A stretch of 64,000 nt of DNA, from NCBI RefSeq assembly GCF_902766885.1, contig NZ_CACXFS010000036.1; one strand, given 5' to 3'. Shown in pieces: positions 8,551-61,930 of this stretch. Under the pieces are notes generated by a model. It did no database searches. It was not told the DNA's origin and was given only the letters and a program-made list of their open reading frames with translations. The DNA is from an uncultured Ruminococcus sp. (GTDB lineage Bacteria; Bacillota; Clostridia; Oscillospirales; Acutalibacteraceae). The number at the start of each line of letters is the position of its first letter. Positions within the stretch are counted from its first letter, which is position 1. The position numbers and the translations under genes are program-made.

Positions 8551-8613
8551 TTTAAAATACCATTGACTAAATTTTTCTAATTTTTTATACTATATTTGAA
8601 AGGAGTTATTAAC

Positions 8614-10851
8614 GTGAAAAAATTATTCAAGAGAACGCTGTCTGTTGCGTTATCGGCTTTAATGGCTTTTTCGGCACTTTCATTTTCTGCCTATGCCGCT
8701 GAAACCGAGTCAGCACAAACAAGCGCACAATCAGCAACACAATCAAACCCGTACGGACTTACGGAAAAAATCAGCGACGGTGTAATACTCCACGCTTGGT
8801 GCTGGAGCTTTAACACCATAAAGGAAAATCTTCCTAAAATTGCCGAGGCAGGCTATACTTCTGTTCAGACCTCGCCGATTAACGAATGTAAGGTCGGTGA
8901 CAACGGCGGTATGGAGCTTATGGGCAACGGCAAGTGGTACTACCACTACCAGCCTACTCTCTACACAATTGGAAACTATCAGCTTGGAACACTCGAAGAA
9001 TTCAAATCACTTTGCAGTGAAGCTAAAGAATACGGAATTCATATTATTGTTGACGTTGTTGCAAACCACTGTTCAAGTGACTACAATGCAATTTCTTCTA
9101 CAATCAAAAACATTGAGGGCGGTGCTTTTCACGATTCATTCGGAATCGGTGACTACAACAACCGTTATCAGTGCACACAGGGCGAGCTGCTCAACTTAAA
9201 AGACCTCAACACACAGAATAAAAATGTTCAGAATATGATTCTTGACTACCTGAAAAGCTGTGTAAGCGCAGGAGCAAGCGGATTCAGATACGACGCTGCT
9301 AAGCACATTGAGTTGCCCGACGAAGAACCTGAAAACGGAAAGGACTTTTCAAGTGATTTCTGGCCTACAATTCTTGACAACGGTTCAGAATTTCAGTACG
9401 GTGAAATTTTGCAGGACAAAGGCAGTCGTACTGCTGACTATGCAGAATATATGAGCGTTACAGCTTCATCATACGGAAGTGTAATCAGAAGTGCAGCGAA
9501 AAATGACAGCTTTAACGCTGAAAATCTTGTTGACTACCGTTCCGACGGTGCACCCAACGACAAGCTTGTAACGTGGGTTGAATCTCATGATAACTACACA
9601 GGCGACGGCACGTGGTCTGAGCTTGATAATCTTGACATAAGACAGGCATGGGCTGTAATTGCCGCAAGAGGCGAAACCACTCCCCTGTTTTTCAGCCGTC
9701 CTGACGGAAGCAGTACCAAAAATCAGTGGGGCAACAACAAAATCGGTGAAGCAGGCGACGATAACTTCTGTCATCCCGAGGTTGTTGCAGTTAACCAGTT
9801 CAGAAATGCAATGGTAGGTCTTCCCGACAGTCTTTCAAATCCGACAGGCGACAACAGCCTGCTTATGATTGAAAGAGGAAGCGCAGGCGCTGTAATCATC
9901 AACGCATCTGACAAAGATGTTGTGCTTGACTGCGCAACAGAAGTTGCTGACGGAACATACACAGATGAGGCGTACGGCGGTCTGTTTGACGTAACCGACG
10001 GAAAATTAAGCGGTACCGTAAAGGCAAATTCCATTGCAGTAATCTACAACAGCACGCTTGTTAAACAGCCTGTTGTTTCGCTTTCAAAGAACGGCGGTGA
10101 GTTCAGAGGAACTCTTACACTTACTTTAACTGCAAGGAACACAACTGAATCAACATATAAAATCGGCAACAGTGCTCCTGTTTCGTATGTTTCCGGCGAC
10201 ACAATTACAATCGGAGCTGATATGGCTGAAAACGAAAGTGTTGACATCGTTCTGTTCGGTAAGAACAGCGAAGGTGACACTGTAACAAAAACGTACACCT
10301 TTAAGAAGCTTGCAACTCCGTATATTGACGGTGAAACAACCGTTTACTTCGACAACAGCAAGTATAACTGGGATAAAGTAAATGTGTACGCATACTATCG
10401 TAACAGCAGCGGCAAGGTAATTAACAACGGCGACTGGCCCGGCACTGAAATGACTGACCTTGGCGGAGATATGTACGGCTACGTTGTAAATCCCGACTGG
10501 GATTATTCGACTGCTTACATTATTTTCAACAACGGCAGCGGAACGCAGTATCCGTCTGAGGTTGGATATGAAATCAAAAAAGGTGAATGCAAAATATTCA
10601 ACGGCAGCGGACTTGACGACTATGTTATTGATGTTCCGACACGACTTAAAGGCGACGTTAACAATGACGGAAATGTAAATATCAGTGACGCAACCTGTAT
10701 TCAGAAATTTACGGCAGAAATTAAAGATTCAGACGGAAAGCCGTTTATTGACGTGAACAATACTGATGATTTTTATGCAAGCGACGTTAACGGTGACAAC
10801 GTCATTGACGTTAAGGACGCAACCGAAATTCAAAAATTGATTGCGGCTTAA
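8614..10851 (+). CDS. Secreted GH13 alpha-amylase with a CBM25/26-like starch-binding module and a C-terminal type-I dockerin
   Basis: GTG start at 8614, 6 nt after AAAGGAG, followed by a signal peptide. GH13 regions are DVVANH, GFRYDAAKH, YGEILQD and WVESHDN. The CBM-like block is VYFDNSKYNWDKVNVYAYY..WPGTEM..IIFNNGSGTQ. The duplicated dockerin is GDVNNDGNVNISDATCIQKF / DVNGDNVIDVKDATEIQKLI. Confidence 0.9.
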   Translation: MKKLFKRTLSVALSALMAFSALSFSAYAAETESAQTSAQSATQSNPYGLTEKISDGVILHAWCWSFNTIKENLPKIAEAGYTSVQTSPINECKVGDNGGMELMGNGKWYYHYQPTLYTIGNYQLGTLEEFKSLCSEAKEYGIHIIVDVVANHCSSDYNAISSTIKNIEGGAFHDSFGIGDYNNRYQCTQGELLNLKDLNTQNKNVQNMILDYLKSCVSAGASGFRYDAAKHIELPDEEPENGKDFSSDFWPTILDNGSEFQYGEILQDKGSRTADYAEYMSVTASSYGSVIRSAAKNDSFNAENLVDYRSDGAPNDKLVTWVESHDNYTGDGTWSELDNLDIRQAWAVIAARGETTPLFFSRPDGSSTKNQWGNNKIGEAGDDNFCHPEVVAVNQFRNAMVGLPDSLSNPTGDNSLLMIERGSAGAVIINASDKDVVLDCATEVADGTYTDEAYGGLFDVTDGKLSGTVKANSIAVIYNSTLVKQPVVSLSKNGGEFRGTLTLTLTARNTTESTYKIGNSAPVSYVSGDTITIGADMAENESVDIVLFGKNSEGDTVTKTYTFKKLATPYIDGETTVYFDNSKYNWDKVNVYAYYRNSSGKVINNGDWPGTEMTDLGGDMYGYVVNPDWDYSTAYIIFNNGSGTQYPSEVGYEIKKGECKIFNGSGLDDYVIDVPTRLKGDVNNDGNVNISDATCIQKFTAEIKDSDGKPFIDVNNTDDFYASDVNGDNVIDVKDATEIQKLIAA

Positions 10852-10870
10852 AATTTAACAGCATATAGTA

Positions 10871-10904
10871 ACAGCCTGCTTTGAATTAAAGCAGGTTGTT
10901 TTTC
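10871..10904. terminator. Hairpin terminator between the convergent amylase and addA genes
   Basis: acagcctgcttt-gaatt-aaagcaggttgt followed by ttttc. Confidence 0.55.
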
Positions 10905-13900
10905 TACAATTTAATGTATTCACCGAGGTGAACAGAGCAGATTATACATTCAGAAACAGTCATTTCCGTTGACTGCTCCATAGCAAATCTGTAAAGTTCG
11001 AGTTGTTTCTCATAAAGCATAGCAAGCTTTGAAACGTCTTTTACACGGTCGGTTTTATAATCGACGATTACAAGCTTTCCGTTTTCTTCAAATGCTACGT
11101 CAACAGCACCCTGAACTATTATTTCAGCGTCTGTATCAACGTTTTCGTATTCATCAAACACCTGTGACGGTTTAAGCTTTGCGCTGAATTGCTCCTCACG
11201 GAATACAAGAGGTGAGTTGATTATTCGCTGCACAAGCTCTGAATTGAGCAGATTTTTCATCTTTTCTCTGTCAATCAGCTCGGTCTGTTCATCTGTAAGC
11301 AAACCGAGATTTTTGAGTCTTTCTATTTCATTATCAAAACATTCTTTTGCATTAGAAAAGTCGCAATACTGCAAAAACTTATGATGCGCAGTTCCCCTGT
11401 CAACTGCGGCAGCCGTTTCTTTGTTGAGAAACGACGGTTTCATCAAAACCTTTTCAAAATAATCACTCTCGCTGTGAGAAATCTGAGATGCGCTGACCTT
11501 CTGCGGAAGATTCATTATATCTGCATTTTTATATTTAAAAGATAAATTTGATTTTAAAAGCTCAGCATAATCAAACATATCTGTCTTTTTAATGCTATCT
11601 ATGATTTTTTCTGAATCATCTGTAGAATAATCAGAATTGCCGAAAATCATTTCTTCACTGTCAATGATTTCAAAATGCCAAGGTGAAGTTTCTTTATATG
11701 GTATCGGCTCGGCTGACGGATTTATTTTCATTCTCAAATCATTAAGTGACGGATGAACAAGGGCACAAAGCAGCAGCCAGTCTGAGATACCCGAGCATCT
11801 GACAACCGAATAAGGCTCAATAATATTACCGAACACTATTTTCGAATATAGGTTTGAAAGATACTTTTCGACGTTCTTTTTTGAACAAACGGCAATAAGC
11901 TTTTCCTTTGCCCTTGTCATAGCCACATAGAGCACACGAAGTTCCTCGGCAATTTCATTTTGTGAAATTTCGATTTCAACAGCAAGTCTTGGCAAGGTAT
12001 TGTAACGGCAAATTCCCTCTCGTTTTTTAATTCCGAGACCTGCGACGCTGTCAATCAGCACGTCACTTCTCAAGTCGGTTTTATTGAACTGCTTGGCGGT
12101 ATCGGCAAGAAAACATACAGGATATTCAAGGCCTTTCGAGGCGTGAATACTGAGCACCCTTACGCCGTTTATTGAGTCGGAATCGGAAGATGCGGCGGGA
12201 AGCTGTGTTCCGTTTTCAGTAAGCTTATCAATGTAGGAAATAAAATCTGAGAGTGTTTTGTAACCGTTTGATTCAAAGCTCCTTGCGTAAATTCTCAGGA
12301 GGTCGAGATTTCGCATTGGTGCTTCTCCGCCCTTTACAGCGGTGGTTATAGCACCGATTGCCGTTGTATCGTAAATTTTGCCGATAAGGTCGTCAACGGA
12401 GCTGGTATAGGAATAGTTTTTCAGCTGTTCAAGCTGTGAGAGAAATTCCTTTGCTTTAGTGCTTTTTGACGAATATTTTTTAACCGCTGAATATAGGTTA
12501 GAACGGCGTTCATCAGCTCTTATTTGAGAAAGCTCATCAGGGGTAAATCCGTAAATCGGACTGCACATAACCGATAAAAGCGGAATGTCAAGCGCAGGGT
12601 TGTCAATAACACGAAGAAGATTTAGTATAATATTTATTTCCTTTGCTTCAAACGAGTTTTCCTTATTCTCGCTGAAAGCGGGGATTCCGCAGTCAATCAG
12701 CGTTTTCACATAGGCTTGTGCGGTATTTTTTGTACTGCGCAGAATAACGGCAAAATCGCCGTAGGTAGCTTTTCGCTGAACATCGCCGTCTTTTACAAGA
12801 AATCCCGATTTCATCATCGAGTGAATTTTATTTGCGATAAAATGTGCCTCAATCTCTGCCGATTCATAGCCGTCAAATGCTGATTTTTCTATTAAAGAAA
12901 TTTCAAAATTGCAATCCGTACTCTGGGGATAGCTTGCACCTACATTAAGCATTTCGTCTTCTGTATAATCCATTTGTGCAGACTGCTTTGTCATGAGGTG
13001 TGAGAAGATGAAGTTTACTGCATCGCAGACTTCTTTTCTGCTTCTGAAATTCTTATCAAGAATTATAGTTGCAGGATAAGCTGGATTTTCCTCGTCAAAT
13101 TTTCCGTAGGAATTTTTGCGGTCAATGAAAATCTGCGGTTTTGCCTGACGAAAACCGTAAATGCTTTGCTTAACATCGCCTACGACAAAAATATTATTTT
13201 CCTCCCTGCTTACACATTTAAAAATCAAGTCCTGAACATCGTTGACGTCCTGAAATTCATCAACGATTACCGCATCATAGCGATTTGAAATCTCATCTGC
13301 TACAGAAGTTTTTTGATAACCGTCATCAATCGGATCTGCAAGTAATTGAACTGTGAGGAGCTCAATATCAGAAAATGACAAAACATTCTTTTTGTTTTTT
13401 AATGCGTTGAATTCTTTTATGAATTCTCGCACAAGGTCAAACAGAGTACCGACAATGCCTTGCAGCTCTTTCATTTCGGCGAGCACATCTTCCTCACTGC
13501 TGCTAAAATAAAGCTGCACAGACTTGATTGCAGACTTTACTTCATCTCGGTTGTCGGCTACGGCAACCTTTAAAGGATTGTCTTTGTAGCCTTTAGGAGG
13601 AGTCAGCCTGCCTGCCGTAAACAAAAAAGCTGATGAGCAGATATCATTCCAAGAATTTGAGTAGAGTTTTTTCAGAAGATTTTCAAGAAAGACGAGATCA
13701 TCTTCAATTTTTGGTGCAAAGGATTTTTGCAGTTTTTCATCATTTTCAAGAATTTCAAGTGAATTCTGAGTGAGGTTTATTGCGTGATGAACCGTAGACT
13801 TTGTATATTCAATTATAATTTTGCCCCATATTGACTCGGCAACCGAGCTTTCACCGTAATTAGAAAGCATTTCATCAAGCCACTTTTCGGGGAACGGCTG

Positions 13901-23665: not shown

Positions 23666-25129
23666 CTACAGCAGTGTTCTTGTAAGACGTTTTCTGTGGA
23701 AAAGATACTGTGTTTCAAGCATAGGCTCGAATTTTGCAATGTAACAGCTCATATATCCCATCATCAACCAAAACCACATAACCATAAAGGAAATGTCATA
23801 CAAGAGGGCTTTCTCAAACATTGCATAAATAAGATATGCAAACAGGAAAGCAAACAGACAGGGATAAACGTCGTTGCGGAAGGTCTTTTTCTGCAAAAAC
23901 AAGTGCTGTGCAGAATGCTTTGCAAAGCGGAATCCGAAGATACCGAACAGCAGAAATCCTATTATTCCCGTTGAAACGAGAATCGTAAGATATCCGTTGT
24001 GCAAATCGCTTTGGTGGTAGGAATAGTTGAGAACTCCGTTTGAATATTCCTCACTGTAAAAGACTATATTTCCGTTTGAAATACCAATAATAGGAGATAT
24101 TTTGAACAGATTAATTGACTCTTTCCATAGCTTGAAACGTCCGCTGTCAATGTTTTTGTTTTCGTGGCCGAAGGTAACGTCTTTTTTCCCTTCTGTTGTA
24201 TTATTTTCCGTTGATGATATTCCCGAAGTTATATCATTGTCGCCCATAATTACGCTGATAATTGAATTTGTTTTTGATAGGACAACGGAAAAACCAGTCT
24301 GACAAATCGTTCTCAGCATAAGTGCCGAAGAAACAAGAAATGCACCGACAACTACAAGAGCAATTATTTTGAATATTATTTTTGACGCTGACAAGCCTGT
24401 TTTGTCTGCAAAGAAAATGTATATTATATATACTATTGCATATGCAAGGATTAAAACCAAAGACGCATTTGAGTCGCAAAGGATAAGTGAAAACAGGTTT
24501 GTTGCCACGCAGGTGAAAATCCAGATTTTACTCACTCTCGGCTGTTTTACGGACTTCATCAATTTTTCTTTATAGAGCATATGACAGCAGACTATTGACA
24601 CAACTGAAACAAAGCCCAAAAGATTAGGATTGACGTAAACGCCCGTAAAGCGATTTTCATAAATTGTAAATTTAATCCAGTACCACTCAAACGTGATACC
24701 GAACATAAGGCAGATAATTCCGATAATATTTGCAACTGTTGTGACATAAACTATAAATCTTGCAATTGAATAAAGCTCGCTTCTGAAATCAAAATCAGGC
24801 TCGGTATGCATTCCGTAAAAAACAAAAAAACATACTAAAACATGAAGAAGCATTATAAGGCTGTAGAGAATTGTTGCCGAGAAATTTATGATAATTGATA
24901 ATAAAGAGAAAATCAGAAAAGCTCCTATCCAAAGTCCGAAACGGAGTTTGAAAAAAGTTTTGTTGACACGCTGATTATAAATTGCAAGTCCTACTCCCCA
25001 TATAAACAGGAAAACAAGCAAAACGTATGCGGGAATCTGGAGAAATGCAATATTGCAGAAGAATAAATCAGCTATGTAGAGTTTTCTGAAAAGAGAAGAA
25101 TCCTTTAACTTTTCTTTAACAGCAATCAT
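23666..25129 (-). CDS. O-antigen ligase/polymerase (Wzy_C)-like polytopic membrane protein
   Basis: 487 aa with at least 10 TM helices and one large loop. It lies adjacent to a priming sugar transferase. The family assignment rests on topology and context. Confidence 0.5.
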   Translation of the reverse strand: MIAVKEKLKDSSLFRKLYIADLFFCNIAFLQIPAYVLLVFLFIWGVGLAIYNQRVNKTFFKLRFGLWIGAFLIFSLLSIIINFSATILYSLIMLLHVLVCFFVFYGMHTEPDFDFRSELYSIARFIVYVTTVANIIGIICLMFGITFEWYWIKFTIYENRFTGVYVNPNLLGFVSVVSIVCCHMLYKEKLMKSVKQPRVSKIWIFTCVATNLFSLILCDSNASLVLILAYAIVYIIYIFFADKTGLSASKIIFKIIALVVVGAFLVSSALMLRTICQTGFSVVLSKTNSIISVIMGDNDITSGISSTENNTTEGKKDVTFGHENKNIDSGRFKLWKESINLFKISPIIGISNGNIVFYSEEYSNGVLNYSYHQSDLHNGYLTILVSTGIIGFLLFGIFGFRFAKHSAQHLFLQKKTFRNDVYPCLFAFLFAYLIYAMFEKALLYDISFMVMWFWLMMGYMSCYIAKFEPMLETQYLFHRKRLTRTLL

Positions 25130-25143
25130 TTTTATACCTCATA

Positions 25144-25827
25144 TCAGCAGAAAACCTCTTTGACGGTTTTTAACATAAGCTTTAAATCAGAACGAAATCC
25201 GAAATTCTCGGTATACTGTAAATTATATTTCATCTTTTCGGGAAGTATTTTTTCAATATAAACCTTGTCAACATCCTGCTCTGATCTTAAAAGCTTTTCC
25301 TCGTCCTTATACATAATAGACGCAAGCGAGGTTATTCCGGCAGGAATAAGGAGTGTTGCAAGGTATTCGGGTTTGTATTGCTCAACATACTTTGGTACTT
25401 CGGGACGTGTTCCTACAACGGACATACTGCCCGAAAGCACATTGAAAATCTGCGGAAGCTCATCAAGACGGTATTTTCTTAAAAATCTGCCTACCTTTGT
25501 CACCCTTGAATCGCTGTCGGTAGTAACAAGCGAGCCGATTTTATCGGCATTTTCAACCATTGTGCGAAATTTGAGAATTTTAAAATGTCTGCCGTAGGTT
25601 GTAACACGCACCTGTCTGTAAAAGACGGGTCCTTTTGAGGTTACTTTGACTGCGACGGCAATAATTATAATAGGAATAATCAGAATAACAAGCAGTATTA
25701 CGGAGAAAATCAAATCCGTAATGCGCTTTAAAACAAGACTTCCTGTTTTTTTACACAGAATATCATAATAATATTTTACTTCCTCACACTGAAACTGCTT
25801 TGGAAGTTTATCAAATGATTTCATGCC
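25144..25827 (-). CDS. Undecaprenyl-phosphate sugar phosphotransferase (bacterial sugar transferase family)
   Basis: Single N-terminal TM followed by RLDELPQIFNVLSGSMSVVGTRPE, the hallmark of the family. The start is taken at MKSFDKLPK. Confidence 0.88.
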   Translation of the reverse strand, partial: GMKSFDKLPKQFQCEEVKYYYDILCKKTGSLVLKRITDLIFSVILLVILIIPIIIIAVAVKVTSKGPVFYRQVRVTTYGRHFKILKFRTMVENADKIGSLVTTDSDSRVTKVGRFLRKYRLDELPQIFNVLSGSMSVVGTRPEVPKYVEQYKPEYLATLLIPAGITSLASIMYKDEEKLLRSEQDVDKVYIEKILPEKMKYNLQYTENFGFRSDLKLMLKTVKEVFC

Positions 25828-25936
25828 ATATCTCCTTATAATAAGCATAAATATTGCATTTTACTATGATATTATATATCTTTTTAAAATCTATTTCAAT
25901 TATTATTTCAAAATCTTAATAATTTACGGCATAACG

Positions 25937-25968
25937 TAAAAACCGACGGTATGCAGCCGTCGGTTTTT
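25937..25968. terminator. Bidirectional hairpin terminator
   Basis: aaaaaccgacgg-tatgcag-ccgtcggttttt. Confidence 0.6.
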
Positions 25969-26145
25969 AGGTAATTTTATGGAGTAATCAAGCACATAGA
26001 AAGGAAGTTGTCAGTTAATTAATGTAAGATAATCTTTATCTTGTCTATACTATACCACAGTCTTTGTTTATTGTCAACACTTTTTTTAAACTTTTTTTAA
26101 AAATAATATGTTAATTATTTAATTATTTATAAATCACTAAACCTC

Positions 26146-26174
26146 TTGACTAAATGCTTAAAAAAATGTAAAAT
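26146..26174 (+). promoter_or_regulatory. Candidate sigma-A promoter (TTGACT-17 nt-TAAAAT)
   Basis: ttgact aaatgcttaaaaaaatg taaaat, about 25 nt upstream of the DUF1292 gene start. Confidence 0.5.
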
Positions 26175-26197
26175 TAAATCAGCAAGGAGGAATAACA

Positions 26198-26494
26198 ATG
26201 AGCAACGAATACAATCCCGACCTTGTCACTTTAATCAGTGACGAAGGAGAAGAAATTGAATTTGAAATCCTTGATATAATTGAAAACGATGAAGGAAAAT
26301 TCTATGTACTCTACCCCTACTATGCCGATCCTGCTGACGCAGTGAACGACCCCGGCGAGTATTATATTTTTGAAGTTCAGGAAATTGACGGTGAAGAAGA
26401 ACTTGCTGAAATTGAAGACGATGAAAAGCTCGACAGAATTGCCGCAATATTTGAAGAAGAATATAACAAAGAACTTTTTGATGAGGATGAGTAA
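26198..26494 (+). CDS. DUF1292 (UPF0473) family acidic small protein
   Basis: 98 aa, strongly acidic. The pattern ITLISDEGEEIEFEILD..DEGKFYVL is typical of the family. AAGGAGG lies 8 nt upstream. Confidence 0.7.
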   Translation: MSNEYNPDLVTLISDEGEEIEFEILDIIENDEGKFYVLYPYYADPADAVNDPGEYYIFEVQEIDGEEELAEIEDDEKLDRIAAIFEEEYNKELFDEDE

Positions 26495-26552
26495 TTTTTT
26501 AATTCTTTTAACATAATATAATATTAGGATTTTAATTGACTTTAGTCTTTTT

Positions 26553-26736
26553 TCCTGCCCGATTCGCGAATGATTTTAAAATAACCCTACAACTCTTAAA
26601 TCGGGAGCTTGGCTCTTTAAGCGGTGTGCAGACCTCCCGTGTTCGGAAGAAGGGAGCCTGAAGCTTAAAGGCGGGCACCCACCTGCTTTTTCGTAGGCAG
26701 GTTATTATTTAAATCATACGGTCGGGCGGGATTTTT
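26553..26736 (+). ncRNA. ssrS: 6S RNA-like structured ncRNA (~184 nt)
   Basis: Hand folding gives a ~30-bp closing helix (5' UCCUGCCCGAUU..AUGAUUU..AAUAACC pairs with 3' GGUUAUU..AAAUCAU..GGUCGGGCGGGA). Inside it is a large internal bubble whose 3' side carries a small hairpin (CCUGC-UUUUUCGUAG-GCAGG). A long terminal helix follows (CUUUAAGC/GCUUAAAG, CUCCC/GGGAG), then a U-tract. There is no ORF. Confidence 0.55.
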
Positions 26737-26795
26737 ATTGTTTATAATTTTCCAATTTTTTCTATATATCTATTAAAAAACAGGAGTAAAAATAT

Positions 26796-27758
26796 ATGAA
26801 TGTTTCAGTTCTCGGATGCGGCAGATGGGGCAGCTGCATTGCATGGTATCTCGATAAAATCGGTCATGACGTGCTTTCCTGCGGTCTTGCCGACGCCCCT
26901 GAGTTTATTCAGCTGAAAAAAACTCACAAAAACGACTACCTTACTTTTCCCGATTCCATTGAAGTTTCTTCGGATTTGGAAAAAGCTGTAAGCAGAGCAG
27001 AAGTGATTGTTATTTCAATTTCTTCCCAGTATCTGCGTTCTTATTTTGAGGATATTTCAAAGTATAACCTTGACAATAAAATTATTGTGCTTTGTATGAA
27101 AGGCGTTGAAGCAACAACAGGAAAACGCCTCAGCGAGGTTGTCGGGGATTTTGTTGATGAAAGCAAAACTCCGATTGCTGTCTGGGTAGGTCCGGGACAC
27201 CCGCAGGATTACGTTAAGGGTATTCCGAACTGCATGGTAATCGACAGCAAAAATCAGGCTGTTAAGGAAAAACTTGTCAATGAGTTTACAAGCGAGCTTA
27301 TTCGTTTTTATCTTGGCACTGACTTAATCGGAAGCGAAATCGGAGCTGCGGCTAAAAATGTAATCGGAATTGCCGCAGGTATGCTTGACGGTCTTAACTA
27401 CACGTCCCTTAAAGGCGCACTTATGGCACGAGGCACAAGGGAAATTGCAAGACTTATAAAAGCACTTGGCGGAAACGAAATGAGTGCATACGGACTTTGC
27501 CATCTCGGAGATTATGAGGCTACGCTGTTCTCCCCTTGGAGCCATAACAGGAAATACGGTGAGGACCTTGTAAAGGGCATTAAGTTTGAAAAACTTGCCG
27601 AGGGCGTTATGACGTCAAAGGCTTTGTATAAGCTGGGCTGTGACTACGGAGTTGAACTTCCTATTGTTGAGAGCGTATATAACGTTCTGTTCAATAATGT
27701 TGACGCAAAAGAAGCTTTGGGAAAGCTATTTGTGCGCTCGGTAAAAAAGGAATTTTAA
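26796..27758 (+). CDS. gpsA: NAD(P)H-dependent glycerol-3-phosphate dehydrogenase
   Basis: 320 aa with Rossmann motif VLGCGRWGSCIAWYL and GAAAKNVIGIAAGM. Confidence 0.85.
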   Translation: MNVSVLGCGRWGSCIAWYLDKIGHDVLSCGLADAPEFIQLKKTHKNDYLTFPDSIEVSSDLEKAVSRAEVIVISISSQYLRSYFEDISKYNLDNKIIVLCMKGVEATTGKRLSEVVGDFVDESKTPIAVWVGPGHPQDYVKGIPNCMVIDSKNQAVKEKLVNEFTSELIRFYLGTDLIGSEIGAAAKNVIGIAAGMLDGLNYTSLKGALMARGTREIARLIKALGGNEMSAYGLCHLGDYEATLFSPWSHNRKYGEDLVKGIKFEKLAEGVMTSKALYKLGCDYGVELPIVESVYNVLFNNVDAKEALGKLFVRSVKKEF

Positions 27759-27773
27759 CAGGCGGATATGATT

Positions 27774-29456
27774 ATGAAAAATACAGGAACCAAAAATAAA
27801 AATTCAACGAAGAAAAGCACTGACGGCAAAAAAGCTACCGTTAAAACAATCAGCAGACAAAATACATTTGAATATGTAATTGTAAATATTATCTGTCTGT
27901 TTTTGTTTGTTGCATTCGGATACATAGCAATTATGAGTTTCTTGCAGACAAGCGTCTTTGACGAAGCCGCTTATTCAAGTGAAAAAATCCTTTATGAAAT
28001 GGATAATATTGCACTGAACATTTTCTGCACAGCTGTTTTTACAGTTTTTGTGTTTAAAATGAAAAAACACTACGACTTCTTTGCAAAAGTTGATTTACGT
28101 TTTATGGAAGTCGGTCTTGTAATTTACACAATTCTGCTCGGTTTGATATGGATTTTTTCCGTTGCTTCAATCCCTGCGGCTGACAGCCAGAATGTATTTG
28201 AAACAGCAACAGAGGCAACTGTCGGTGATTATTCTTCAATAAACGGCAACGGAGATTTTTATAACAGCGCATACTATAACAATTACGCTTACTACAACTT
28301 CTATCCTTTCCAGCTTGGATTTGTGTTTATCAGCGAGATAATTTACAGAATTTTCGGCACTTCAAGCTCTATGCCCGTTCAGGTGCTGAATGTAATCTGC
28401 GTAGCTCTTGCGTATCTTGGCATTGCAAAAATCACTAAGCATATTTTCAAAAGACGTTCGATTGAATTTATCACAATTCTTCTGCTTGCCGGTTGTTTTC
28501 AGCCGATGCTTTTCTGTACCTTCGTTTACGGCAATATTATCGGAATGTGCTGTGCAATCTGGGCAAGCTACTTTTTGATAAGATATTTTCAGACTTCAAA
28601 ATATATACTTCTTCTCCCCTGTGCAGGACTTCTTGTTCTGGCTACAATGGCAAAATACAATAATATGATTTACCTTGTTGCATTTGTGATTATGCTGATA
28701 GTTCACACGGTAAAGGAGAAAAAGTGGCAGAGCATTGCATTTGCGCTTGCACTCTGCGTTGCAACCGTAGGTATAAGTAATCTGATTATTATAAGCTATG
28801 AAAGCAGAGCAAATACTGACCTAGCCGACGGTGTGTCGCAGGCAATGTACCTTGATATGGGACTTAATGATTCATATATGGCTCCCGGTTGGTACAACGG
28901 TCTTGCACTTGAAACGTATAAAAGCAGTAACCTTGACAACAAAGTTGCCGACCAGAGAGCATGGAGCGACATTAAAAACAGATTAAATGTGTTCGGAAGC
29001 AATCCTGAATATGCAATTGACTTCTTTGGCAAGAAAATTGTAAGCCAGTGGAACGAGCCTACCTTTGAAAGTATCTGGGTAAGCGAGGTTAAGTCACATA
29101 GTTACAATGTCAATTCTATCGGCAACGGTATGTATAACGGAAGTTTAGGACAGTTCTTTGAATTGTATTTCAACCTTTATATACAAATTCTGTATATTCT
29201 GTTTGTAATAGGAATTTACTGTTTATTCCTTAAACGAAAGACTAACATTGAAACAGCGTTGCTTTTGCTTGTTATTTTGGGAGGATTCGGATATCATCTT
29301 CTTTTTGAAGGAAAATCTCAGTATATTCTGACATATATTCCCCTTCTGATTCCGACTGCGGCATTCGGAATGAATACAATACTCGAAGGCAAATTTACAA
29401 AGGTTAAAGAAATTGTCGGAAAGCTAAAAGCGATTCCCGAAACGAAAAATGCATAA
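27774..29456 (+). CDS. Polytopic membrane protein, possibly a GT-C (ArnT/PMT-like) glycosyltransferase
   Basis: About 560 aa with 11 or more TM helices and a soluble loop near the C-terminal third. No diagnostic motif was recognised. Confidence for the functional call is low, although the gene itself is convincing. Confidence 0.35.
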   Translation: MKNTGTKNKNSTKKSTDGKKATVKTISRQNTFEYVIVNIICLFLFVAFGYIAIMSFLQTSVFDEAAYSSEKILYEMDNIALNIFCTAVFTVFVFKMKKHYDFFAKVDLRFMEVGLVIYTILLGLIWIFSVASIPAADSQNVFETATEATVGDYSSINGNGDFYNSAYYNNYAYYNFYPFQLGFVFISEIIYRIFGTSSSMPVQVLNVICVALAYLGIAKITKHIFKRRSIEFITILLLAGCFQPMLFCTFVYGNIIGMCCAIWASYFLIRYFQTSKYILLLPCAGLLVLATMAKYNNMIYLVAFVIMLIVHTVKEKKWQSIAFALALCVATVGISNLIIISYESRANTDLADGVSQAMYLDMGLNDSYMAPGWYNGLALETYKSSNLDNKVADQRAWSDIKNRLNVFGSNPEYAIDFFGKKIVSQWNEPTFESIWVSEVKSHSYNVNSIGNGMYNGSLGQFFELYFNLYIQILYILFVIGIYCLFLKRKTNIETALLLLVILGGFGYHLLFEGKSQYILTYIPLLIPTAAFGMNTILEGKFTKVKEIVGKLKAIPETKNA

Positions 29457-29544: not shown

Positions 29545-29592
29545 TAAAAAAAGGCTGTAATGTGTATCAGTAAAAACATACACATTACAGCC
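29545..29592 (-). terminator. Strong hairpin terminator closing the PqqD-peptidase-NTase operon
   Basis: 15-bp perfect stem ggctgtaatgtgtat / atacacattacagcc. On the minus strand it is followed by ttttttt. Confidence 0.65.
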
Positions 29593-29597
29593 TATAT

Positions 29598-30818
29598 TTA
29601 TTCAAAATCGTCGAAACCTGTTTCAATAAGTAAGCCTTTAAAATATTCAACATCATCGTCGGTGTAAGAGAATCGGTTTTTAATTCCGTTCTTTACATTG
29701 ACGTTTTTATCTATAAAAAATCTTCTGAACCACATTTGAACCCAAGAAACCGGAAGTAAAAACGGAAAACTGTTCAGATACGAATAATTTACCGACATAG
29801 AATTTTTATTTGGAAATACGCTACTTAAAAAATAAGAAAACTTCGACTTGCTTTTGCCCTCTTTCTCTACCGATTTAATCATCTTATGCGAGCCTATCAT
29901 AACGCCTGCATCAATTCTGCCGAGCCTTGCGCTCAGAAGAATGAATACTTCTAAATCGTCAAAGGTAATCTTTTGTTTGTCGGGAGAAAACCAATTGAAA
30001 GCAATTTCCCTTATACGCTTTTCGAAAGTTTCCAGTTTAAACAGTCTGAGTTTATCACTTAAATAATCAAGGTCAAAATCATCTTTATGATTGCGGTAAT
30101 ATACGTAGGTATCAAGCAACATTCTGATACTCAAACCACCCATTCTGAAATGATTGGAATTATGGACAAGCATATACAAATAGTGGTCTTCAAGGCTTAA
30201 TTCATACGAATATTCATATCCGTCACGTTTTATTGATTTGTCGATTATGTCAACAAGGTAGGGATAATAACTTTCCCATTCGTGAACAAGAGTTGCATGC
30301 ATTTCAATATACATATATGGTTTTTTCTTAAAGTGGTACTGATTATCGTCGTAATGTAAAAATTCATAACCAAGCTCTGAAAAAGCTTTTTTTACCAAAT
30401 CAATCTGATTTCTGTTAAAAAGAATGTCATAATCGCTTATTGAACGGTAATCGGAACGAGGATATTCATTTTTAATAAAATAGCCTTTGAGAGGAACATT
30501 TTTGATTTTATACTTATCAAAGGCAGAAAGCACCTTTTCAATCTCATAACCGTGATTACTGTCAATTAAAATTTCAGCGTTAATATTCTCTTTCAGAATT
30601 TTAATTATATCTTGATTCGGAAGATATTCTTTAGGAAGTGTTAAAACAGTATTTGCAAAAGCCGCATCAAGTCCGCAGATTTTTGAAATGTTAAACAGTC
30701 TGAGCCAGTTTATACCCTCATAAGGAATAGGAGCAGGAGTTTCATTTACGGCAGAGGAGAAAACGCTGATAAGATAGGAATATTCTTTTTTCTCAATATC
30801 ATTCAACTGTTTTTTCAT
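29598..30818 (-). CDS. NTP_transf_5-like (Pol-beta superfamily) nucleotidyltransferase family protein
   Basis: ORF 29598-30917 trimmed to MKKQLNDIEKK (406 aa). The NTase-fold pattern PLKGYFIKNEYPRSDYRSISDYDILF (G..DxD) and the overall size resemble the uncharacterised nucleotidyltransferases found beside PqqD genes in RiPP loci. The start overlaps the upstream stop by 20 nt. Confidence 0.55.
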   Translation of the reverse strand: MKKQLNDIEKKEYSYLISVFSSAVNETPAPIPYEGINWLRLFNISKICGLDAAFANTVLTLPKEYLPNQDIIKILKENINAEILIDSNHGYEIEKVLSAFDKYKIKNVPLKGYFIKNEYPRSDYRSISDYDILFNRNQIDLVKKAFSELGYEFLHYDDNQYHFKKKPYMYIEMHATLVHEWESYYPYLVDIIDKSIKRDGYEYSYELSLEDHYLYMLVHNSNHFRMGGLSIRMLLDTYVYYRNHKDDFDLDYLSDKLRLFKLETFEKRIREIAFNWFSPDKQKITFDDLEVFILLSARLGRIDAGVMIGSHKMIKSVEKEGKSKSKFSYFLSSVFPNKNSMSVNYSYLNSFPFLLPVSWVQMWFRRFFIDKNVNVKNGIKNRFSYTDDDVEYFKGLLIETGFDDFE

Positions 30819-31290
30819 CTGATTTTTTATTTCCTTTTCCGAATAATTTTGAAACTTTATTTGTACCGAAACGATAAGAATGTCTGAAAAAACGGGTATA
30901 GAACCAGAAATTGACATAAAGTCTGTAGCTGAAAGAGTTTACGCTGTATGCCTTTCCTTTGCGGTAAAAAGCTGTTACAACGCCTATGATATCGCTGTCC
31001 TTTATTCCGTGCTCTAATACAAACTGATTATCACCGCAAAGCACATAGCTTCCGTCAGCGTCAAAGTTTACAATTCTGTGGAGAACGTAAGACCCGTTAC
31101 TCCTTTTATAAAACGGAATATCAAAAAGATGCAGTCTGCCGTCTGGCTTTGAGAGTACAACAACGTCTTCACCGTCACGCAGCATCGGAAGCATACTTTT
31201 TCCTTTAGCAGAAAATGTCACCGTGCCTCCGCTGTTTAGTTTTTCAACCATTATATCTATTACGTCATCAATTGCGACTTCTTTACTCAA
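30799..31290 (-). CDS. S24/S26-like serine peptidase
   Basis: 163 aa with nucleophile motif GKSMLPMLRDGD and LexA/signal-peptidase-like beta strands (VVVLSKP, YVLHRIV, VLCGDN). The start overlaps the PqqD stop by 8 nt. Confidence 0.6.
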   Translation of the reverse strand: MSKEVAIDDVIDIMVEKLNSGGTVTFSAKGKSMLPMLRDGEDVVVLSKPDGRLHLFDIPFYKRSNGSYVLHRIVNFDADGSYVLCGDNQFVLEHGIKDSDIIGVVTAFYRKGKAYSVNSFSYRLYVNFWFYTRFFRHSYRFGTNKVSKLFGKGNKKSDEKTVE

Positions 31291-31546
31291 GAATATCAGC
31301 GCCCTTTACCTTTTCTATGAACAAATCAATATCCTTTTCAGCCTTTTGCTCGGTTACTTCATATTCATCAAGCATTTTACTGATAAGTTCTTCCCTGTTT
31401 GCTCCGTTCTGCATAAGATTAAAAAGGAATGCACCTGTTTCATTGAGGTTGATAATACCGTTAAAGTCAAGCGACATATTATTTACGGGTACTACAACGT
31501 AGGAATCAGCAACCTTGCGCAAAATAAAATCTTCCTTTATCTTCAT
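31283..31546 (-). CDS. PqqD-family protein (RiPP recognition element-like)
   Basis: ORF 31283-31618 trimmed to MKIKEDFILRKV (87 aa, AGGTGG 5 nt upstream). The PqqD pattern is ..VVVP....LNETGAFLFNLMQNGANREELISKMLDEYEV..EKAEKDIDLFIEKV. Confidence 0.7.
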   Translation of the reverse strand: MKIKEDFILRKVADSYVVVPVNNMSLDFNGIINLNETGAFLFNLMQNGANREELISKMLDEYEVTEQKAEKDIDLFIEKVKGADILE

Positions 31547-31583
31547 AAAACCACCTGCTATATACGAATATTCTATGCAATCT

Positions 31584-31612
31584 ATTATAATATACAGCAA
31601 TAAAAAAAGCAA
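31584..31612 (-). promoter_or_regulatory. Candidate sigma-A promoter of the PqqD operon (TTGCTT-17 nt-TATAAT)
   Basis: The minus strand reads ttgctt tttttattgctgtatat tataat. The -35 element overlaps the descending arm of the upstream terminator. Confidence 0.5.
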
Positions 31613-31639
31613 GGGCATTGCAGTTTTGCAACACCCTTG
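31602..31639 (-). terminator. Rho-independent terminator of the 213-aa dockerin protein gene
   Basis: The minus strand reads caagggtgttgca-aaac-tgcaatgcccttg followed by cttttttt. Confidence 0.6.
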
Positions 31640-59877: not shown

Positions 59878-60106
59878 TATATTTGCCTCCTGTTTATCAG
59901 CTTTCGCTGCTGTTTTTTTATGTTGTAACTATAATAATCTGAAAAAGTGAAAACTATATGAACTCGTTTTGAAATAAATATGAAATAATATATACCATTA
60001 TGTGAAAAACAAGCAAAAAATATAAGATATTACATTGTAATTTACAGTAATATATGATATAATTATTATAAATTAATTAATTTTTTTGTTGATGGGAGAT
60101 ATATTT

Positions 60107-61930
60107 ATGAGAAAACGTTTCTTAAAAGTAATGCTTTGTGCAATTTTAAGTACTATGATTGCGTTATCTGCATCATTTGCTGCTTTTGCAACAGAAACAA
60201 ATTGCCCTGATATTCTTTTTGAGGTTAAAACAGACGAAAACGGTTTTCAGTATATAAAGGAAAACGAGAATGTAAAGGCGGATAAGATTAAAGTTAATGA
60301 TAATTTAATAAAATCTATTTCTCTTCCCTCAGAATACAATCTTGCAGACTATAACCAAGTGACCGGAATAAAAAATCAGAATCCATACGGTACGTGCTGG
60401 GCGTTTTCTGCAATTTCATCTATTGAATCGACACTGATAAAGTCAGGAAATGCTGACTCATCTGTTGATTTATCCGAAAAACACTTAATCTGGTTTAACT
60501 ACAACGGAGCTGACAGCAGTACAGACAAGAGCCTTTATGCAGGTAATGACTCCTATAACAGTTTAGGATATTCACCGTTTTTGTTGGGCGGTTCAATGTA
60601 TATGGCTGCATCTACTCTTTTGAGAAGATACGGAGTAGCTGATGAAAGTAAAGCGCCCTATGAATTTTCAAACGGCACAGAGCTTGACAGTTCTCTCAAA
60701 AATACATCTGACATTTATCTTAAAAATGTAACTTTCCTGCCTGAAACCGTATCATTTACAACAGATAGTTCGGGTAATGTTACAAATCAGGAACTTCTTG
60801 ACAGCAATACTGTCGCTGCAAGTATCAAGGAAATTAAAGAAAACATATATACTAAAGGTGCTGTTGCTGCCTCGTATTACTGTTCAGATTCAATGACCGG
60901 AAATAACTCAAATGACAAATACTGGGACAATACATATAAAAGCTATTACTTTAATGCAAAGCTTTCGGGCGAGGATAATTTTAATGCTCCTAACCATGGA
61001 GTTACCCTTGTCGGCTGGGATGACAGCTTTTCTAAAAACAACTTTGCAACAGCTCCTCCAAAAGACGGTGCGTGGATTGTTAAAAACAATTGGGGCAGCA
61101 ATTGGGGTAACAAAGGATATTTTTATCTTTCATATTATGATTTAAGCTTTAATGAACCTGTTGTTTTTGAAGCAGAAAATGCCAAATATAAATCCGACGG
61201 CACTACAAAGCACGAGTACAAAAACATATATCAGTATGACGGAATCGGCTTTGGTGACGCTCAGATTTATGATTACGGTAAAGACACATATAAATCAGCT
61301 AATTTCTTTACAGCAAGAGGCAACGAAAAGCTTGAAGCTATTTCGGTATCTTCACTTTATGATAATTGCACCATAAACTACGAAGTATATAAAAATCTCA
61401 CTTCAGATGTTAATCCCACACTCGGAACGCTTGCCGCTAAGGGCAGTAAATCGTTTGTAAACAAAGGCTACTATACCATACAGCTTGACACTCCTGTTGA
61501 ACTGTCCGAAGGTGAAAAATACTCTGTAGTAATAAATATATACTTTACAAGCGGAGGAAAGGATTATTCTATTCTCGCCTGCGAAACTCAATACGGTTAC
61601 TATACAAGCATTGAGGTAAACGAAAATCAGTCGTCATATTACTCAAACGGTAAGTGGCAGAAAATTGATTCATCATTAACAATTCTCGGCTGTAAAATCG
61701 GAAATGCAACTGTCAAAGCTTATACAAATGATGCTGCACAGCCTCTTTACGGAGATGTAAACAAAGACGGTGTTCTGAGTGTTGCAGACTCAACATTAAT
61801 CCAGAAGTACTGCGCTGAATTTGTAACCTTTACTGATGAACAGATTGCAGTTGCCGATATAAACAGAAACGGAAAAATCGACATCGGAGACGCTACTACA
61901 ATACAGAGAATCGTAGCCGGATTATTATAA
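60107..61930 (+). CDS. Secreted papain-like (C1 family) cysteine peptidase with a C-terminal dockerin
   Basis: Signal peptide, then QNPYGTCWAFSA (Cys), NHGVTLVGWDD (His) and VKNNWGSNWG (Asn). The dockerin is GDVNKDGVLSVADSTLIQKY / DINRNGKIDIGDATTIQRIV. The start is set at MRKRFLK (GGGAG 9 nt upstream). Confidence 0.85.
   Translation: MRKRFLKVMLCAILSTMIALSASFAAFATETNCPDILFEVKTDENGFQYIKENENVKADKIKVNDNLIKSISLPSEYNLADYNQVTGIKNQNPYGTCWAFSAISSIESTLIKSGNADSSVDLSEKHLIWFNYNGADSSTDKSLYAGNDSYNSLGYSPFLLGGSMYMAASTLLRRYGVADESKAPYEFSNGTELDSSLKNTSDIYLKNVTFLPETVSFTTDSSGNVTNQELLDSNTVAASIKEIKENIYTKGAVAASYYCSDSMTGNNSNDKYWDNTYKSYYFNAKLSGEDNFNAPNHGVTLVGWDDSFSKNNFATAPPKDGAWIVKNNWGSNWGNKGYFYLSYYDLSFNEPVVFEAENAKYKSDGTTKHEYKNIYQYDGIGFGDAQIYDYGKDTYKSANFFTARGNEKLEAISVSSLYDNCTINYEVYKNLTSDVNPTLGTLAAKGSKSFVNKGYYTIQLDTPVELSEGEKYSVVINIYFTSGGKDYSILACETQYGYYTSIEVNENQSSYYSNGKWQKIDSSLTILGCKIGNATVKAYTNDAAQPLYGDVNKDGVLSVADSTLIQKYCAEFVTFTDEQIAVADINRNGKIDIGDATTIQRIVAGLL

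Follow-up and report, generated by a model that had tools for sequence, protein, structure and literature searches.

A stretch of 64,000 nucleotides from an uncultured Ruminococcus sp. (assembly GCF_902766885.1, contig NZ_CACXFS010000036.1), hereafter called the window, carries a three-gene operon that encodes a PqqD-family recognition element (RRE) for peptides that are made on ribosomes and modified after translation (RiPPs), a leader peptidase resembling signal peptidase I (SpI) and a nucleotidyltransferase (NTase) of the NTP_transf_5 family. We consider it likely that the operon is a reduced RiPP module of the linear polyphosphorylated peptide (LPP) type, in which an RRE-guided leader peptidase would act together with optional tailoring by the NTase, on a substrate encoded outside the window. 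Our verdict is that the trio is a functional, reduced variant from an uncharacterised Clostridial sister clade, and that three LPP-defining features, the kinase, the exporter and the precursor, fail in cis.

LPPs were described in May 2026 in Paenibacillus alginolyticus DSM5050 (Popov et al., Nat Commun 2026; PMC13381572). The lpp core includes the precursor LppA, the HprK-like kinase LppK, the discrete RRE LppB, the SipW-like peptidase LppS, the MsbA-like exporter LppD and the NTP transferase LppN; the domain tables assign LppN to NTP_transf_5 and match the peptidase and the exporter to TIGR02228 and TIGR02203, respectively (PMC13381572). LppK polyphosphorylates Ser3 of the core peptide, and LppB presents the leader to LppS, whose cleavage of it requires LppB (PMC13381572). 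Sequence comparison identifies the window trio as a distant homologue of the lpp genes, from a Clostridial sister clade that was tabulated and not studied in that work. Supplementary Data 1 lists the SpI of an 'uncultured Ruminococcus' under network cluster 9 and those of Dehalobacter and Anaerocolumna under cluster 4; both clusters are listed with an 'other' RRE and a precursor 'ND', and the studied cluster was cluster 1 only, from Bacilli (PMC13381572). An initial annotation made from the letters of the window had proposed an undescribed module. The word undescribed is not supported: this kind of system is now published, and the supplementary table already lists RRE-associated peptidases from Ruminococcus and other Clostridia (PMC13381572). 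The logic that it envisaged, an RRE working with a leader peptidase, has been established experimentally for the homologous LppB and LppS (PMC13381572).

Conservation of the RRE, the peptidase and the nucleotidyltransferase

A hidden Markov model search with PF05402 PqqD scored the product of gene 1 at 53.7 bits (cut-off, 23.4), as expected from its initial description as PqqD-like; models of lasso PqqD chaperones also matched it, below their thresholds. Its sequence matches in the PDB include the lasso RRE TbiB1, below threshold, and 9x8z_B (LppB). Identity to LppB is 19–23%, and the LppB residues N33, Y60, D70 and F74, which hold the YxxP motif of the leader (PMC13381572), correspond to N35, Y62, D72 and F76 of the window RRE. 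These four residues are at least 96% conserved in a sample of 80 species-representative genome loci, nearly all from Ruminococcus and including R. bromii ATCC 27255 (individual loci, of this sample or beyond it, are cited below by L numbers).

The product of gene 2 scored below the cut-offs of the curated models, with 13.5 bits against Peptidase_S24 and 23.3 bits against TIGR02228, the archaeal-type signal peptidase I model (cut-off, 51.85); its best matches among them, though under the cut-off, are signal peptidase I models. In phmmer alignments with SpsB and a Bacillus signal peptidase I, its GKSMLPML pairs with box B and its LHRIV lies opposite the general-base VKRII of these enzymes. An AlphaFold model (predicted local distance difference test score, pLDDT, 77.9) retrieved from the PDB solely clan-SF peptidases (lambda cI, LexA, UmuD, SipA and SpsB). 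Because of this box alignment and of the exclusively clan-SF matches of the model, the predicted S24/S26-like (clan-SF) assignment, first suggested by the GKSMLPML motif as LexA/signal-peptidase-like, holds despite the weak curated-model scores. 

The window peptidase and LppS share 25% identity (E = 9e-14), and S32, H71 and E93 of the window protein align with S29, H68 and D93 of LppS, an enzyme that is inactive in its S29A, H68A and D93A mutants (PMC13381572). All three window residues are 100% conserved in 78 peptidase orthologues. The Ser/His dyad that had been suspected from the sequence is thus in keeping with an invariant S32 and H71 whose counterparts are essential in LppS, and the nucleophilic Ser, the conservation of which the initial annotation had set as a test, does not vary. 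Identity to the network cluster 9 SpI of uncultured Ruminococcus is 37% (E = 2e-33). In the model, an amphipathic N-terminal helix (residues 7–19, high pLDDT) stands at the place of the signal-peptidase membrane anchor, and no hydrophobic N-terminal anchor is seen; the helix corresponds to the one that docks on the RRE–leader sheet in the LppS model. The window peptidase therefore has neither of the two marks of a bona fide type I signal peptidase, a score above the cut-off and an N-terminal anchor.

The NTP_transf_5 identity of gene 3 is clear from 134 bits against PF14907 (cut-off, 31.2), and here too the initial assignment stands. The Pol-beta-type G[SY]...DxD...E motif of this family is present and kept, with G112, D129-x-D131 and E172 conserved in 31–32 of 32 orthologues, including the two Asp residues whose conservation had been singled out as decisive. 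A PDB sequence search with the NTase found no solved relative. The gene is present in about 32–35 of the 80 loci (~40%), and where present it lies always directly downstream of the peptidase gene. Because more than half of the orthologous loci are without it, the NTase is dispensable to the module. In the related pseudomycoidin system, the product of the N gene acts in tailoring and attaches hexoses to a phosphoserine. In the LPP system, deletion of lppN had no detectable effect (PMC13381572). Together with the frequent absence of the gene, these facts speak against the earlier comparison of the NTase with the lasso cyclase C. In Ruminococcoides intestinale (L062:10480-11699), the NTase is distributed over two ORFs (10480-10980 and 10977-11699), as a frameshifted pseudogene or through an assembly error.

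The RRE gene adjoins the peptidase gene in all 80 loci. Because the catalytic and leader-binding residues are 96–100% conserved over about 80 species and the median ratio of nonsynonymous to synonymous substitution rates (dN/dS) is low in all three genes (RRE, 0.15; peptidase, 0.13; NTase, 0.11), the module is maintained by selection and is not decaying. The core is also far more widespread than the roughly 200 sequences sampled in the published study (PMC13381572): the peptidase profile collected 7,219 representatives at 50% identity, 2,805 of them at E <= 1e-10. A kinase or an exporter is found near the pair in only about 6 of the 80 loci. More distant Clostridial loci carry a ScmC/HprK-like kinase, an RRE, an SpI, an ATP-binding cassette (ABC) exporter and sometimes an NTP_transf_5 gene, often inside capsule loci; the window RRE and peptidase are 38–61% and 39–47% identical, respectively, to those of these fuller clusters. 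The possibility that orthologous trios always sit beside lasso or sactipeptide core machinery, raised at the outset as grounds for rejection, was not borne out, since the neighbours in these relatives are HprK/ScmC-like kinases and ABC exporters, not cyclases.

Other architectures of the peptidase family were also observed. SpI-like domains occur in fusions with NTP_transf_5, an ABC exporter, a 'sugar-transfer associated' ATP-grasp domain and a GNAT acetyltransferase (representatives P0264, P0248, P0231 and P0252); the fusion to an exporter is analogous to the peptidase-containing ABC transporters.

Absent partners and candidate precursor peptides

Pfam annotation covered nearly all non-shadow window ORFs of at least 120 aa, and these encode housekeeping functions, three envelope-glycan proteins and enzymes with dockerins of the sort typical of an R. 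bromii-like organism. Among the large ORFs of the window, Pfam showed no radical-SAM or YcaO protein and no kinase, MsbA-type exporter, cyclase or B2 protease, and the lasso hallmarks, an Asn-synthetase-like C protein and a transglutaminase-like B2 protein, were not among the matches of the scanned ORFs. A phmmer comparison of the window with ScmC/HprK-like kinases and ABC exporters returned no kinase, and its sole ABC match is the ATPase of a substrate-binding-protein-dependent importer. The initial observation that no precursor, maturase or exporter lies in cis was confirmed over the whole window.

The precursor was also sought across the loci. When 2,882 small intergenic ORFs were clustered, the conserved ones were only gene shadows, GroES, DUF1292, a 6S RNA and a leader hairpin; the co-varying small ORF that gene-neighbourhood analysis had been expected to reveal did not emerge in these loci, where no conserved small ORF accompanies the RRE–SpI pair. 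The N-termini of all neighbouring proteins were scanned for a conserved [YW]xxP and none was conserved, the only matches being a PaaK-type ligase and a cell-wall amidase. The gaps in L075 and L080 proved to hold a low-molecular-weight phosphotyrosine phosphatase and cps genes, and the 66–76-aa ORFs of L081, L084, L089 and L090, one of which encodes a TM2-domain protein, were rejected as precursors, being without the motif. In L081 (8674-8877) and L084 (8662-8862), a 66–67-aa TM2-domain membrane protein, also without the leader motif, is encoded directly upstream of the kinase gene. Ruminococcus L075 (3147-8379) has genes for a ScmC-like kinase and two ABC exporters ~1.3–6.5 kb upstream of the RRE–SpI pair and, in the same interval but on the opposite strand, one for a low-molecular-weight phosphotyrosine phosphatase; the components that the window lacks can thus be close to the pair and yet not next to it.

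The fuller Clostridial clusters supplied candidates. Small called ORFs upstream of three of them share a motif, [F/Y]xxPx[I/F]xV...D[V/I]IT[T/I]S, as in MKFEMPVIEVVEFAVEDVITTS..., MKTFNAPVINVEKFEMVDVITTS... and MKHFYTAPDFDVSVYDIDDIITIS.... The published LPP leader motif is YxxPxVLxHQxIxFETxxS (Px9Fx[T/A]) (PMC13381572), and the Clostridial motif can be read as the [Y/W]xxPx[V/L] leader in variant form, with a Thr/Ser junction after it. A peptide profile searched against 5.8 billion proteins gathered 18 members of 33–48 aa with E-values from 5e-16 to 9e-8. In five distinct contexts (L085, L086, L087/88, L097-99 and L102/103), the peptide is encoded 0.3–6.6 kb upstream of a kinase–RRE–SpI(–ABC) cluster on the same strand, with a second copy in L098 and L099; in two others (L094-96 and L100/101), there is no cluster gene within 10 kb of it. 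Because some of these candidates lie more than 10 kb from any cluster, it is plausible that the substrate of the window trio is encoded in trans, and no particular substrate is identified thereby. The peptides are candidate precursors for the clade whose precursor was left 'ND' (PMC13381572), and they offer a concrete motif for genome searches and peptides for in vitro tests.

In most contexts (L086, L087, L094, L097 and L100), the peptide gene lies 50–170 bp downstream of a gene for a large protein; three of these proteins have Flg_new_2, Beta_helix or heparinase-like domains and others have no Pfam match. The tail of a nearby 296-aa protein in L086 (...MFEDETELDF) resembles the peptide core (...MFDDETEMD).

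Proposed function and competing explanations

By homology with LppB and LppS, we infer that the window pair carries out RRE-dependent leader cleavage; the nature of the substrate and the role of the NTase, which we also infer, would be as follows. The 87-aa RRE would bind the leader, of [Y/F]xxP type, that a ribosomal peptide or a small protein carries and present it to the cytoplasmic SipW-like peptidase, which would remove the leader using Ser32 as the nucleophile, His71 as the base and Glu93 as the third residue. The NTP_transf_5 protein would be an optional tailoring enzyme, probably one that transfers a nucleotide-activated group as its pseudomycoidin relative does. The substrate, plus any kinase and exporter, would be encoded beyond the 64-kb window.

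Several points weigh against this reading. Identity between the window proteins and those of the lpp cluster is only 19–25%, and the third catalytic residue is Glu in the window peptidase and Asp in LppS. The HprK-like kinase, the defining enzyme of LPP systems, is absent from the window; unphosphorylated precursor is a poor substrate of LppS (PMC13381572), and a kinase-less module may therefore work differently. The substrate was not found: six-frame scans of the window and the 80 loci with strict, medium and loose forms of the published leader gave no credible match, and the Clostridial variant motif was absent from the window and from all 80 Ruminococcus-type loci. For LppN, no activity has been demonstrated even in the model system (PMC13381572).

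LPPs have so far been characterised only in Bacilli (PMC13381572). Ruminococcus keeps the RRE–peptidase core under purifying selection without the class-defining kinase, and there are two options: the genes of the cluster are routinely scattered over the genome, or the core does work for which no kinase is needed. It is conceivable, if rather doubtful, that in the R. bromii group RRE–SpI(–NTase) is a self-sufficient, kinase-independent system that operates in trans and matures a peptide or small protein from an unlinked gene, perhaps a relative of the [F/Y]xxP...D[V/I]IT[T/I]S family, with the NTase modifying the substrate directly rather than a phosphoserine. If true, the RiPPs concerned would be a new LPP-like subclass, in a keystone starch degrader of the gut.

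The pair or trio might instead process a full-length protein, for example one of the cell envelope or a glycan pathway, with the RRE as a substrate adaptor and a functional tie to PMT_2, Bac_transf and Wzy_C. The usual context of the module, groES-groEL-(dockerin)-RRE-SpI-(NTase), a convergent PMT_2 gene (adjoining in 62 of the 80 loci) and then gpsA, DUF1292, Bac_transf and Wzy_C, lends itself to this explanation, as do the relatives found inside capsule loci (Wzz, CpsD, CpsB and LytR). Published LPP-type loci are likewise embedded in capsular polysaccharide loci and have precursors of up to 200 aa (PMC13381572), a peptidase fused to a sugar-transfer ATP-grasp family exists, and a small precursor was not found in the 80 loci. 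We nevertheless regard a protein substrate as unlikely. The species that share this synteny are related members of Ruminococcus, and common descent may be all that it reflects; none of the neighbouring proteins has a conserved [YW]xxP N-terminus, and small peptide candidates do exist in the fuller clusters.

The missing kinase, exporter and precursor could also mark an LPP or lasso cluster that was once complete and is now decaying and functionless, and the NTase gene, lacking in more than half of the loci and split in L062, would fit such a history. This is very improbable and is largely refuted by the selection analysis, with dN/dS values of 0.11–0.15 in all three genes; moreover, about 80 species show no variation in the catalytic and binding residues, and gene order and overlaps are preserved. 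Selection that persists where an own precursor, kinase and exporter are lacking would suit a trans-acting module that intercepts or inactivates foreign LPP-like peptides, for immunity or cheating rather than for maturation of its own product, and a conflict-like, patchy evolutionary history has been inferred for such systems (PMC13381572). We give this explanation very little credence, however, as evidence of peptide uptake is absent and the conserved place beside groESL looks vertically inherited, unlike a conflict system. It is extremely unlikely that gene 2 encodes a housekeeping SipW-type signal peptidase for secreted proteins such as the neighbouring dockerin protein. Its best curated-model matches are signal peptidase I models and a secreted dockerin protein does adjoin the operon, but a soluble helix takes the place of the N-terminal anchor in the model, pairing with a cytoplasmic RRE is obligatory, a dockerin gene is the neighbour in only 6 loci, and true SipW enzymes form a separate network cluster (PMC13381572).

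Operon layout, neighbouring genes and known relatives

The features of the operon and the candidate precursor ORFs are collected in Table 1. Position and strand of the trio agree with the initial annotation, as do the overlaps of 8 nt (RRE/peptidase) and 20 nt (peptidase/NTase) calculated from the coordinates, and independent gene callers agree on the three start codons. 

The promoter is the weakest part of the confirmed operon description. The operon had been credited with a promoter of its own. The TATAAT of the putative −10 element is perfect and its distance to the RRE start, 36–37 nt, is kept in the window and the close relatives inspected. The putative −35 element is a poor hexamer that overlaps the 3′ end and T-tract of the terminator of the upstream gene, and the site was not called by a promoter consensus scan. 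The strong terminator proposed at the 3′ end was confirmed (dG −28.5 kcal/mol; z = −7.3), with a stem one base pair longer than the 15 bp first counted. Rfam miRNA matches on this terminator were below threshold and merely reflect the hairpin.

Table 1. Coordinates of the operon features in the window and of the candidate precursor ORFs in Clostridial loci
Feature	Location	Strand	Remarks
RRE gene (gene 1, PqqD family, LppB-like)	31546-31283	minus	87 aa
SpI-like leader peptidase gene (gene 2, LppS-like)	31290-30799	minus	163 aa, TTG start
NTP_transf_5 gene (gene 3, LppN-like)	30818-29598	minus	406 aa
Putative −10 hexamer TATAAT	31584-31589	minus	Perfect; read from sequence; 37 nt 5′ of RRE start codon
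Putative −35 hexamer TTGCTT	31607-31612	minus	Weak; 3/6 match to TTGACA
Intrinsic terminator, operon 3′ end	29545-29593	minus	16-bp stem, 10-nt loop, U7; common to the convergent PMT_2 gene
Terminator of upstream dockerin gene, 5′ boundary of unit	31610-31639 (31600-31639 as boundary element)	minus	13-pair stem and T-run by scan
Candidate precursor ORF	L085:2284-2406		Motif family
Candidate precursor ORF	L086:7850-7951		Motif family
Candidate precursor ORF	L087:6278-6385		Motif family
Candidate precursor ORF	L097-L099:10001-10123		Motif family
Candidate precursor ORF	L098:11021-11140		Motif family
Candidate precursor ORF	L102:10001-10123		Motif family

Beside the module, at window positions 23666-29456, genes for Bac_transf (an initiating sugar-phosphate transferase), Wzy_C (the O-antigen ligase/O-oligosaccharyltransferase family) and a PMT_2 GT-C glycosyltransferase are grouped; together, these few genes could make up a pathway that glycosylates proteins or lipids. 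In the untranslated leader of the Bac_transf gene (window ~25930-25995, minus strand), a hairpin resembling a terminator (AAAAACCGACGG...CCGTCGGTTTTT) is kept in 44 loci. It had no Rfam match at E <= 0.1 and may serve the glycan genes as an element of attenuation or antitermination. The 6S RNA (SsrS) gene lies between DUF1292 and gpsA (26549-26736, plus strand; Rfam RF00013, 91.5 bits, gathering score 46.4) and was first noticed, in 40–49 loci and on both strands, as a 'conserved small ORF'. Two dockerin-bearing proteins, an alpha-amylase whose starch-binding module is a CBM26 (8596-10851, plus strand) and a papain-family peptidase that also has a lectin-like domain (60086-61930, plus strand), point to an R. 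bromii-like, amylosome-forming organism. R. bromii, which is in the host group, is a keystone species for the breakdown of resistant starch in the human gut.

Among known systems, the lpp cluster shares with the window a discrete RRE encoded directly upstream of a SipW-like Ser/His/acid peptidase and an NTP_transf_5 gene in the same operon. Their catalytic and leader-binding residues align, and both are found near envelope-polysaccharide genes. The two differ in that counterparts of LppK, LppD and LppA are absent from the 64 kb of the window, in an N-terminal MKIKxxFxLRxVA...VVPV segment that the window RRE has and LppB does not, and in their hosts, Bacilli for lpp and Clostridia (Ruminococcus) for the window.

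The paeninodin/pseudomycoidin lasso clusters of Bacillota (A, B1, B2, C, D, K and N) also combine a discrete PqqD-type RRE with an NTP_transf_5-type N gene. They encode an Asn-synthetase-like C protein and a transglutaminase-like B2 protein, whereas the window has a clan-SF serine peptidase for leader removal. SipW and the archaeal- and ER (endoplasmic reticulum)-type signal peptidases I (TIGR02228, S26B) resemble the window peptidase in the box B GxSMxP, in the GDN box and in having His at the position of the general-base Lys; the window enzyme, in contrast, scores under the model cut-off, is anchorless and RRE-paired, and is predicted to cut leaders instead of Sec signal peptides. The Clostridial ScmC-like kinase–PqqD–SpI–ABC(–NTP_transf_5) clusters (L081, L084-L091 and L097-L103) possess a kinase and an exporter, and some of them a candidate precursor of 33–41 aa, none of which the window has; they belong to the same RRE/peptidase clade as the window operon and have the same RRE–SpI–N gene order.

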